The position numbers and the translations under genes are program-made. The notes beneath the pieces are model-generated. The model was not told the DNA's origin, made no database searches, and saw only the letters and a list, made by a program, of their open reading frames with translations. Positions 6,932 to 40,675 of a stretch of DNA of 64,000 nt are shown in pieces. Each line of letters starts with the position of its first letter. The first letter of the stretch is position 1. Source of the stretch: Escherichia coli (GTDB lineage Bacteria > Pseudomonadota > Gammaproteobacteria > Enterobacterales > Enterobacteriaceae); assembly GCF_003334405.1 (NCBI RefSeq), contig NZ_QOWM01000010.1; one strand, written 5' to 3'.

Positions 6932-10084
<3,153 letters not shown>

Positions 10085-10102
10085 TACAACGTGTAATCAC
10101 TA

Positions 10103-10127
10103 AGGCCGCGTAAGCGGCCTTTTTTAT
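10103..10127 (+). terminator. Rho-independent terminator downstream of acrB
   Basis: GC-rich hairpin aaggccgc-gtaa-gcggcctt followed by a T-tract (tttttat) immediately after the acrB stop. Confidence 0.75.
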
Positions 10128-10629
10128 GCATAACCTACGAACATTAAGGAGTAATTGAACCACCAACTCAGGATCTCATACGAAAACCAGTATTAACCAC
10201 GGATAAAATTCATAAAAAATACTGATTGTTAGTTAATTTATATTAAGTAGCGCTAATAGATTTAATAATCCATAATCATTTAGAGGCTATTCTTAATTAT
10301 TTGCGGTAATTCTTTATTCATTCCTCGGTTATTACGTCATATTCAGAGCAATCCTGGTATTAGTGTCACCAATTTCATCTGGCGATAATCCTGAAATGTT
10401 ATGAATAGTTCGAGCAAACTGCTTTTACCTGCTGCGGGTTAGTGCTAGTATGAAAAAGTGAGTCCTGTCCCGCTTCCTTCCTAATTGTAATTTTTCGTAA
10501 TAATGCGATGAAAACCTGCAAAGAGTGGCTTATAGTTAAGCTAACAAACGAGAGGGCAAGTCCAGGTCAGTAAGTTTTTTCCATCCCGAAAGGTGTCCGT
10601 TAGTTCAACCGCTAAGAAGGGGACGCGTT

Positions 10630-11004
10630 ATGGATGAATACTCACCCAAAAGACATGATATCGCACAGCTTAAGTTTCTCTGTGAAACCCTGTATCATGA
10701 CTGCCTTGCAAACCTTGAAGAAAGCAATCATGGCTGGGTAAACGACCCAACCTCGGCGATCAACCTCCAGTTGAATGAACTGATTGAGCATATTGCGACC
10801 TTCGCACTTAATTACAAAATTAAGTATAATGAAGACAATAAGCTCATTGAGCAGATCGACGAATATCTGGATGACACCTTTATGTTGTTCAGTAGTTATG
10901 GTATTAATATGCAGGATCTTCAGAAATGGCGGAAGTCAGGTAATCGACTATTCCGTTGTTTTGTCAATGCGACGAAAGAGAATCCTGCGAGTTTATCTTG
11001 TTAG
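10630..11004 (+). CDS. tomB: Hha toxicity modulator TomB (YbaJ)
   Basis: 124-aa ORF ([25 protein letters not shown]...) directly upstream of hha. Confidence 0.92.
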
Positions 11005-11029
11005 AATTATTACAACCATAGGTAGAAGT

Positions 11030-11248
11030 ATGTCCGAAAAACCTTTAACGAAAACCGATTATTTAATGCGTTTACGTCGTTGCCAGACAATTGACACGCT
11101 GGAGCGTGTTATCGAGAAAAATAAATACGAATTATCAGATAATGAACTGGCGGTATTTTACTCAGCCGCAGATCACCGCCTCGCCGAATTGACCATGAAT
11201 AAACTGTACGACAAGATCCCTTCCTCAGTATGGAAATTTATTCGCTAA
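11030..11248 (+). CDS. hha: Haemolysin expression modulator Hha (H-NS co-regulator)
   Basis: 72-aa protein [35 protein letters not shown]... starting at an internal ATG of ORF 10784..11248; 25 nt downstream of tomB. Confidence 0.93.
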
Positions 11249-11419: not shown

Positions 11420-11971
11420 ATGAGCACAGAAAAAGAAAAGATGATTGCTGGTGAGTTGTATCGCTCGGCAGATGAGACGTTATCTCGCGATCGCCTGCGC
11501 GCTCGTCAGCTTATTCACCGATACAATCATTCCCTGGCGGAAGAGCACACATTACGCCAGCAAATTCTCGCTGATCTATTCGGTCAGGTGACAGAGGCTT
11601 ATATTGAGCCAACGTTTCGCTGTGACTATGGCTATAACATTTTTCTCGGTAATAATTTTTTCGCCAACTTCGATTGCGTGATGCTTGATGTCTGCCCTAT
11701 TCGCATCGGTGATAACTGTATGTTGGCACCAGGCGTTCATATCTACACGGCAACACATCCCATCGACCCTGTAGCACGTAATAGCGGTGCTGAACTGGGG
11801 AAACCCGTCACCATCGGTAATAACGTCTGGATTGGCGGACGCGCGGTCATTAACCCTGGTGTGACCATTGGTGATAACGTCGTGGTAGCCTCAGGTGCAG
11901 TTGTCACAAAAGATGTCCCGGACAACGTTGTCGTGGGCGGTAATCCAGCCAGAATAATTAAAAAATTGTAA
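11420..11971 (+). CDS. maa: Maltose O-acetyltransferase (hexapeptide-repeat acyltransferase)
   Basis: 183-aa ORF with left-handed beta-helix hexapeptide repeats ([40 protein letters not shown]). Confidence 0.93.
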
Positions 11972-39268: not shown

Positions 39269-39724
39269 TCTGTAAATATTATTTAGCTGTAGTAATCACT
39301 CGCCGTAATTATTACGGCTAAATAAACATCAGTATCGCTTATTAATATTTGTTCTTTTGTGCGGCTTAGCGTTTGGAAATTATTGGCGCCATTTATAAAT
39401 TCTATTTTTCTTACACGATTCAGCTAATGAGTCTTTATTTTCTCATCACCCAGTTGTCACTCTAATGATAATTATTTGTTAAATAATTGTTTTATTTCAC
39501 ATTGGTTATACCAATTGCCCGCCCAGACTCCTTCAGCACTCCCCTTTTGTTATAACGCCCTTTTGCAACAGCTTCTTAAAATCAACCTGATATGTTTTGC
39601 AACATATGTGACCTGGCAGCCAAATCCAAGTAACAGGAATTTAATCATGTTTACAGTAATGTAACCTTCCCGTAAAATGCCCACACACTTTAAACGCCAC
39701 CAGATCCCGTGGAATTGAGGTCGT

Positions 39725-40675
<951 letters not shown>

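Follow-up and report, generated by a model that had tools for sequence, protein, structure and literature searches.

The spacer between acrB and tomB in Escherichia coli is very probably the cis-regulatory region of the tomB-hha operon, with inputs from CpxR, RcsB and H-NS as parts of a joint model. One main sigma-70 promoter (-35 at 10508, -10 at 10531, start site at 10543) gives rise to a leader of 87 nt in which the Shine-Dalgarno sequence is both strong and conserved, and phosphorylated CpxR at a site centered at -49 most likely recruits RNA polymerase under envelope stress. The distal 350 bp would form an AT-rich, H-NS-binding tract with further protein-binding islands, of which an RcsAB/RcsB-type box is the clearest, and this distal part may tune or counter-silence the promoter. 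The spacer is an ordinary and largely documented regulatory region, with its promoter, transcription start site (TSS), Cpx-regulon membership and H-NS binding already on record, and no new type of element emerges from the analysis. What is gained from the comparison of 76 species is that the CpxR site is pinned to 10487-10501, that AT-richness and length of the spacer emerge as a family trait, and that an apparently unreported RcsAB-box-like site, cheap to test, comes into view. As a co-repressor, Hha reinforces the silencing of virulence genes and horizontally acquired genes by H-NS, so that the control of its own operon matters for regulation in pathogens.

The window, that is, the whole 64-kb stretch of DNA that was analyzed, corresponds to the reverse complement of MG1655 427339-491337, such that the MG1655 coordinate equals 491338 minus the window position. 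The genes that flank the spacer and the terminator that opens it are as follows.

6935-10084, + strand: acrB (open reading frame list, MG1655 annotation)
10102-10127, + strand: intrinsic terminator of acrB (terminator scan), with a stem-loop at 10102-10121 formed by the stem AAGGCCGC / GCGGCCTT and the loop GTAA, then a T-run
10630-11248, + strand: tomB-hha operon, comprising tomB (10630-11004) and hha (11030-11248) (open reading frame list, MG1655 annotation)
11420-11971, + strand: maa

The spacer spans 10085-10629 (545 bp); without the acrB terminator and its T-run it becomes 10128-10629, the interval to which the preliminary description had drawn attention and which we refer to below as the region. 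The long, AT-rich and ORF-free gap described there is confirmed, since the 545 bp rank first in length among the 55 intergenic gaps in the window (MG1655 gene table) and no ORF of at least 60 codons lies within the gap on either strand, the largest being two of 44 and 40 aa for the - strand and one of 21 aa for the + strand. It is equally correct that most gaps in the window are below 200 bp (45 of 55, with a median of 115 bp). The stem of the acrB terminator is the sole perfect inverted repeat in the spacer and is kept across the 76 species. A PdhR site reported for tomB was considered as a spacer element and set aside, as its position (9614-9630) is inside acrB. We found no paper that deals with the acrB-tomB spacer under that name.

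A TomB-based scan, with one genome per species, returned 80 Enterobacteriaceae loci. Wherever both gene ends are present (75 of 75 loci), acrB is followed by tomB, and the spacer between them measures 435-559 bp (median 509) with a GC content of 0.35-0.40. Thus, both the length and the AT-richness of the spacer are conserved in the family. The 4-fold degenerate sites of tomB, taken as a neutral reference, have a mean identity to E. coli of 0.51, and 6% of them reach an identity of at least 0.9; islands within the spacer are conserved far above this baseline across 76 species. Runs of at least five columns at 0.85 or higher comprise the terminator stem, two parts of a distal block (10224-10228 and 10237-10241), the sequence TTGTAATTTTTCGT at 10485-10498, the -35 (10509-10515) and -10 (10530-10538) elements, the motif CCATCCC at 10581-10587 and the Shine-Dalgarno region at 10617-10627. 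The distal 350 bp consist of short conserved islands set apart by variable DNA. The proximal part, about 150 bp in length, contains the following elements.

10487-10501, + strand: predicted CpxR box, the tandem repeat GTAAT-TTTTC-GTAAT (conservation, position, consensus match)
10508-10536, + strand: core sigma-70 promoter P1, with the -35 ATGAAA at 10508-10513, a 17-nt spacer and the -10 TATAGT at 10531-10536 (consensus scan)
10543, + strand: mapped TSS of tomB-hha (Kim et al., PMC3415461 supplement)
10543-10629, + strand: 5' UTR of tomB, 87 nt, with CCATCCC at 10581-10587 and the Shine-Dalgarno sequence AAGGGGA at 10617-10623 (invariant runs)

The arrangement ATGAAA-17-TATAGT matches the sigma-70 hexamers at 9 of 12 positions, and both hexamers are kept across the 76 species. 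Identical hexamers constitute the constitutive RpoD promoter of tomB-hha in genomic SELEX with RpoD holoenzyme (Shimada et al., PMC3946193). For tomB, the published table has a start at 480019 in the old MG1655 numbering, together with an 87-nt 5' UTR (PMC3415461 supplement); the upstream sequence given there closes with ...TATAGTTAAGCTA, and this puts the TSS at window position 10543, 7 nt past the -10. With the start at 10543 the leader is 87 nt, and the long 5' UTR that had been considered for this gap is therefore not supported. The homologous promoter of K. pneumoniae ybaJ has a 97-nt UTR (PMC3415461 supplement), and the same TSS table, which includes UTRs of up to 438 nt, holds no further spacer start in E. 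coli or K. pneumoniae; a single start in each species likewise speaks against the multiple promoters that had been envisaged. RNA polymerase is also bound here in vivo, as a ChIP-seq peak of the sigmaS form at 479920-480115 (old MG1655 numbering) is centered on the tomB TSS (PMC4447067). Classical toxin-antitoxin loci carry an operator-like palindrome at this place; one was looked for at the core promoter of tomB-hha and not found. The proposal that the gap is a regulatory region is supported.

Conservation of the 5' UTR across the 76 species lies at 0.66-0.78. Within it, CCAUCCC can pair with GGGGAUG of the Shine-Dalgarno region in most genera, or can take part in a local CAUC/GRUG hairpin. 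The helix CAUCCC:GGGAUG pairs in 95% of alignment cells with zero covariation, the local hairpin pairs in 91.5% of cells with 2 compensated cells, and RNAalifold on the leader alignment retains 4 pairs and finds no covariation. The E. coli leader has an MFE z-score of -0.29 against shuffles, its predicted pairing of the Shine-Dalgarno sequence is identical at 25, 37 and 42 C, and the anti-Shine-Dalgarno helix is missing from the E. coli ensemble. Neither helix is supported by covariation, and a structured leader, such as an element that sequesters the Shine-Dalgarno sequence or an RNA thermometer, is possible on these data.

The CpxR box begins at -56 and is centered at -49 from the TSS, where it abuts the -35, and it sits within an invariant block (10482-10503) that reads TAATTGTAATTTTTCGTAATAA. 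Indeed, GTAAT-N5-GTAAT is invariant in 76 Enterobacteriaceae species, and the 14-column run that overlaps it is conserved at 85% or more. CpxR-activated sigma-70 promoters, for example those of cpxP and degP, have the consensus GTAAA-N5-GTAAA. Compared with this consensus the tomB box has 2 mismatches, and matches at that level are common in the window (60 vs 46 expected), so that the consensus match alone is not significant and the case for CpxR is based on conservation and position. The tomB promoter resembles CpxR-activated promoters in its tandem pentamers with 5-nt spacing, located just upstream of a weak -35, and in its regulon, as the RegulonDB CpxR regulon lists both tomB and hha and the CpxR iModulon contains tomB (PMC7657598). 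It differs in that both pentamers read GTAAT instead of GTAAA, that RpoD holoenzyme by itself is also sufficient for promoter activity, and that tomB is not among the genes with binding peaks in CpxR ChIP-exo under ethanol stress (PMC7657598).

Another known counterpart is the orthologous ymoB-ymoA operon of Yersinia pseudotuberculosis, where the distance of 56 bp between a CpxR motif and ymoB TSS2 downstream of it is the same as in E. coli, where this motif binds CpxR~P in EMSA and where ymoB promoter activity rises on Cpx activation in a reporter assay (PMC13353760). Two TSSs are mapped there, whose positions relative to the start codon are -188 and -106 (PMC13353760); the latter gives a leader of 106 nt compared with 87 nt in E. 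coli, whereas the start at -188 is without a mapped equivalent in E. coli or Klebsiella. The invariance of the box in 76 species, the RegulonDB and iModulon membership and the Yersinia EMSA together make the assignment to CpxR strong, and we infer that CpxR binds the E. coli box at 10487-10501.

Among the distal islands, the clearest is a short pseudo-palindrome.

10343-10356, strand not assigned: candidate RcsAB/RcsB-box-like element, TCAGAGCAATCCTG in E. coli (found at the homologous place in 76 of 76 species)

Each of the 76 species has the pattern NN(A/G)GA-N4-TC(C/T)NN at this homologous place, and the distance from there to the CpxR box downstream is usually 165-181 bp. Boxes of the RcsAB/RcsB type occur in the wza/cps, rcsA and flhDC promoters. 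The family consensus of the tomB element, TAAGAATATTCCT(A/G), in which G4, A5, A8, T10 and C11 are invariant in the 76 species, matches the published RcsAB box TaAGaatatTCcta (PMC4325325) at 13-14 of 14 positions, and all the capital-letter positions of the published box are invariant in the element. At least 12 of the 14 published-consensus positions are present in 51 of 76 species, and 40 of 76 fit TNRGAN4TCYNA. Of all copies, that of E. coli, TCAGAGCAATCCTG, has degenerated most (9 of 14) and misses the strict form TN(G/A)GAN4TC(T/C)NA at the last base. In this strain the element lies 144 bp upstream of the CpxR site and about 190 bp upstream of the TSS.

We also considered that the palindrome might instead be read as an RNA hairpin. 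Its outer pairs are not kept symmetric, however, and A3 stands opposite C12 in 35 of 76 species; since this asymmetry is also that of the published box, a protein site is favored over a hairpin. The element is thus like an RcsAB box in being a 14-bp pseudo-palindrome with the published conserved positions invariant and the A3/C12 asymmetry reproduced, and unlike one in its distance of about 190 bp from the sole mapped TSS and in the 9 of 14 match of the E. coli copy. For a class II promoter beside the box, -10-like hexamers downstream are scattered and none stands at a fixed distance, so that RcsB, if bound, would act at a distance. A search of the literature for RcsB control of tomB/ybaJ returned no report, and the RcsAB-box-like site at tomB is apparently unreported. 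Binding of RcsB at this distal box is a prediction from comparative sequence data.

LolCDE inhibition activates both Rcs and Cpx, and induction of tomB by it therefore does not discriminate between the two pathways. A LolCDE inhibitor induces tomB 5.9-fold and 11.2-fold (PMC5105897), an indirect indication of Rcs-dependent expression. Taken together with the CpxR site, the distal element raises the idea of a two-input envelope-stress module, in which an RcsB/RcsAB site within the H-NS-bound tract, typically about 170 bp upstream of the CpxR site, would counter H-NS or cooperate with CpxR, and Rcs and Cpx would jointly set the levels of Hha/TomB. We put this forward tentatively and regard it as rather doubtful. 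Were it true, Rcs and Cpx would, via Hha, set the strength of H-NS silencing genome-wide, and the promoter-like block and the CTAAC...ATGAAT island of the distal part (see below) would be further inputs.

The base composition of the spacer stands out within the window. The lowest-GC 200-bp stretch in the 64 kb begins at 10123 (GC 0.28 vs 0.515 for the window), and the spacer as a whole has a GC of 0.378. As tomB and hha are themselves AT-rich (GC 0.37-0.45), the spacer is a trough within a 1.3-kb AT-rich block. The A/T-tract string quoted in the preliminary description is found at 10234-10272, and its statement that the gap is markedly AT-rich with many A/T tracts is true relative to the window: the region holds 18 tracts of at least 4 bases, or 3.6 per 100 bp vs 1.7 for the window, which places it in the top 1.7% of 502-bp windows. 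The count is not above what its own composition gives, as mononucleotide shuffles have a mean of 15.1 (P=0.22). AA/TT dinucleotides exhibit a modest 10.5-bp periodicity in the region (P about 0.01). The high-affinity H-NS motif TCGATAAATT is not enriched, with 1 match at up to 2 mismatches, which is located within the CpxR box. In vitro, genomic SELEX flags the tomB/acrB spacer as having an H-NS site (Shimada et al., PMC3946193).

These data bear on the suggestion that the gap is the kind of curved DNA on which H-NS and Hha nucleate, which is supported by the low GC, the weak AA/TT phasing and the SELEX flag, and which draws no support from motif enrichment or an A-tract excess over composition. 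In its stronger form, this suggestion would make the spacer mainly curved AT-rich DNA for H-NS/Hha nucleation, with autoregulatory silencing of tomB-hha as its principal function. The presence of the lowest-GC stretch of the window, the periodicity, H-NS binding in vitro and an AT-rich spacer of similar length in 75 other species are all consistent with such a function. On the other hand, tracts are as frequent as composition predicts, there is no enrichment of the high-affinity motif, RNA polymerase occupies the promoter in vivo and RpoD holoenzyme recognizes it as a constitutive one, and the best-conserved elements are specific sites (the CpxR box, the core promoter and the RcsB-like box) rather than general AT-richness. 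We therefore judge silencing as the principal function to be possible but somewhat improbable. It is compatible with the spacer being a cis-regulatory region of which it forms one layer, and we regard the binding of H-NS as a single layer among the several inputs to this control region and not as its defining feature.

The spacer can also be compared with the H-NS-bound AT-rich promoter regions of horizontally acquired genes. It shares with them a low GC (0.28-0.38 vs 0.51-0.52 for the genome), H-NS binding in vitro and flanking genes, tomB and hha, that are AT-rich too; in contrast to them, the tomB locus is not strain-specific but belongs to the core genome, with synteny kept across Enterobacteriaceae, and its promoter is occupied by RNA polymerase in vivo. 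The preliminary description had stated that its view would fail if the region had no transcription start site, no conserved structure and no H-NS occupancy; this is not what is seen, as both a TSS and the binding of H-NS in vitro have been documented. Its interpretation is partly right, but the best-conserved features, the CpxR box directly upstream of the -35 and the family-wide RcsAB-box-like element, were missed. An interplay of the CpxR and RcsB sites with H-NS would be a further, predicted part of the joint model.

Further islands and one variable segment make up the rest of the distal part.

10128-10200, strand not assigned: variable segment found in Escherichia only, with no detectable constraint (conservation 0.03-0.08; no alignable counterpart in most other genera)
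10222-10269, + strand: distal conserved block, promoter-like, with a -10-like hexamer at 10264-10269 (column conservation, rigid spacing)
10385-10412, + strand: island CTAAC-N3-ATGAAT-N3-TAAGG, with an ATG at 10401 that opens a 13-codon ORF in E. coli (ATG kept in 62 of 76 species)
10443-10451, + strand: extended -10-like TGcTAGTAT, a candidate secondary promoter of one clade with a predicted TSS near 10458

The family consensus of the distal block is CTTATTGT-N7-TTTATTTT-N19-TATAAT, and the E. coli copy reads CTGATTGT ... TTTATATT ... AATAAT. Columns of its CTTATTG (10222-10228) are conserved in 59-75 of 76 species and those of the hexamer in 52-70 of 76. The spacing within the block is rigid, since 62 of 76 species keep 15 nt and 54 of 76 keep 27 nt, and the Klebsiella clade lacks 8 bp between the motifs. 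No acceptable -35 is placed 16-18 bp upstream of the distal hexamer, and comparison by eye with the PhoP, Fur, IHF and alternative-sigma consensuses gave no convincing family-wide match. Of 74 species, 19 have TGnTAnnnT in the 75 nt that precede the CpxR box. In about 17 of them, which belong to E. coli, Citrobacter and S. diarizonae, the motif stands at the homologous offset (-44 to -54); the extended -10 is missing in the other Escherichia species, Enterobacter and Klebsiella.

It could be argued from these two elements that one or two extra promoters generate long-leader isoforms of tomB-hha, the distal one with a TSS near 10276 and a leader of about 350 nt, the extended -10 with a TSS near 10458 and a leader of about 172 nt. 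The retention of a TATAAT-like hexamer in most of the 76 species at a rigid spacing to two upstream motifs would fit such promoters, as would the homologous offset of TGnTAnnnT in E. coli, Citrobacter and S. diarizonae and the two mapped starts of Yersinia ymoBA, at -188 and -106. Yet the published TSS table (PMC3415461) shows no start at either the distal block or the extended -10, giving 10543 alone in E. coli and the homologous start alone in Klebsiella despite its inclusion of UTRs of up to 438 nt. In addition, the distal hexamer is without an acceptable -35 and the motifs of its block stand 8 bp closer together in the Klebsiella clade, whereas the extended -10 is restricted in its distribution as described above. 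Extra promoters are thus unlikely in our estimation, and the single promoter at 10508-10536 is retained as the main one.

The ATG at 10401 bears on another reading, namely that a gene for a small RNA or a small protein has escaped annotation in the spacer. Among ORFs on both strands it provides the only conserved start, kept in 62 of 76 species, and the ORFs that it opens recurrently begin with M-(N/K)-x-K; moreover, several conserved islands carry no assigned function. However, this ATG is without a Shine-Dalgarno sequence, and the encoded peptides range from 5 to 40 aa and are dissimilar in sequence. An ATG on the - strand at 10584 was also considered and is a by-product of the CCATCCC motif. 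For small RNAs, Rfam 15 run on the E. coli spacer at E values of up to 10 gave no match inside it apart from terminator look-alikes, the best scores being 14-18 bits, on the acrB terminator, compared with thresholds of 41-50, and no match reached the gathering score in the spacers of eight other genera. A scan found no terminator-like site within the spacer past the acrB terminator, no TSS is mapped there for such a gene, and no annotation falls in the spacer, either in MG1655 or in a sample of the 5424 E. coli genomes with a match. With no Rfam family in E. coli or the eight other genera and no ORF conserved as a peptide, neither the small RNA nor the small peptide that had been raised as options gains support, and we consider a hidden gene of either kind extremely improbable.

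Finally, the distal 350 bp might be a functionless AT-rich remnant of a horizontally acquired tomB-hha cassette. The segment 10128-10200, confined to Escherichia and unconstrained, would be expected of a remnant, and natural strains tolerate an IS1 insertion in the spacer and also a 380-bp spacer deletion; a transposon insertion in the spacer was neutral or selected in one long-term culture (PMC5010248). Set against this, a spacer length of 435-559 bp and several islands are conserved above the synonymous-site baseline in 76 species, which renders a functionless remnant very unlikely and leaves the distal part as a component of the regulatory region. An origin of 10122-10210 from a repeat or mobile element was discarded, as this stretch is single-copy in E. 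coli, with 10128-10200 being single-copy in 5424 genomes.

The spacer between acrB and tomB (10085-10629, plus-strand numbering) is essentially intact in 5409 of the 5424 E. coli genomes with a match to it, and two natural insertions of IS1 elements fall directly within the control region of the tomB-hha operon. In strain FAM21845 (L084, NZ_CP017220.1), a natural E. coli isolate, an IS1B element is inserted at window position 10522-10530, where a 9-bp target, AGAGTGGCT, has been duplicated on either side of it. This element interrupts the 17-nt stretch that separates the -35 and -10 elements of the mapped tomB promoter, and the -10 element is thereby split from both the -35 element and the CpxR box. 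In strain TUM13773 (L085, NZ_CP128912.1), an IS1 element in the same orientation as tomB takes the place of 380 bp of the spacer (10193-10572), such that the strain lacks both the predicted RcsB-like box and the CpxR box as well as the core promoter with its transcription start site, and 57 bp remain 5' of the tomB ATG. In this strain, tomB-hha must be either transcribed from IS1 or else silent.

Within the tomB leader, the sequence CCAUCCC is invariant and can pair with GGGGAUG of the Shine-Dalgarno (SD) region in most genera. The partners are:

10581-10587, plus strand, CCAUCCC segment of the tomB leader
10617-10635, plus strand, SD and start-codon region of tomB

Escherichia has GGGGACG in the SD region and GAU as the second codon of tomB, and therefore AUGGAUG at the start codon takes over as the complement of CCAUCCC. 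Codon 2 is also GAU in several Citrobacter species. Covariation statistics give no support for a helix.

Besides the main RcsB-like box, seven loci from Enterobacter and Lelliottia (L017, L020, L022-L025 and L034) have a second site ~29-30 bp downstream of it that fits the RcsB core pattern less well (AAAGAAAAGTCCGA is one such sequence), which suggests that this clade has tandem RcsB-like sites. For tomB, genomic SELEX has also reported a PdhR site, which lies outside the spacer:

9614-9630, PdhR site inside the acrB coding sequence, towards its 3' end, ~470 bp 5' of the acrB stop codon

Its sequence, AAcgGaatcgACCAgcT, is a weak match (8/14) to the consensus.

An island of the form CTAAC-N3-ATGAAT-N3-TAAGG at 10385-10412 is kept in most of the 76 Enterobacteriaceae species compared. 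Its ATG (10401) has no SD sequence and starts ORFs of 5-40 codons across species, all of which begin with M-(N/K/I)-x-K and are dissimilar thereafter. Further upstream, at 10280-10318, the 19-nt sequences TTAGAGGCTATTCTTAATT and TTTGCGGTAATTCTTTATT form an imperfect direct repeat (74% identity, 20-bp spacing), a similarity that may have arisen by chance, given the AT-rich DNA.

The spacer between cyoA and ampG (39269-39727; 459 bp, GC 0.359) ranks second in gap length within the window and holds the maximum of A/T tracts among all 502-bp stretches of the window, with 29 versus 18 for the acrB-tomB spacer; its GC minimum, 0.29 at 39317, is the second-lowest of the window.
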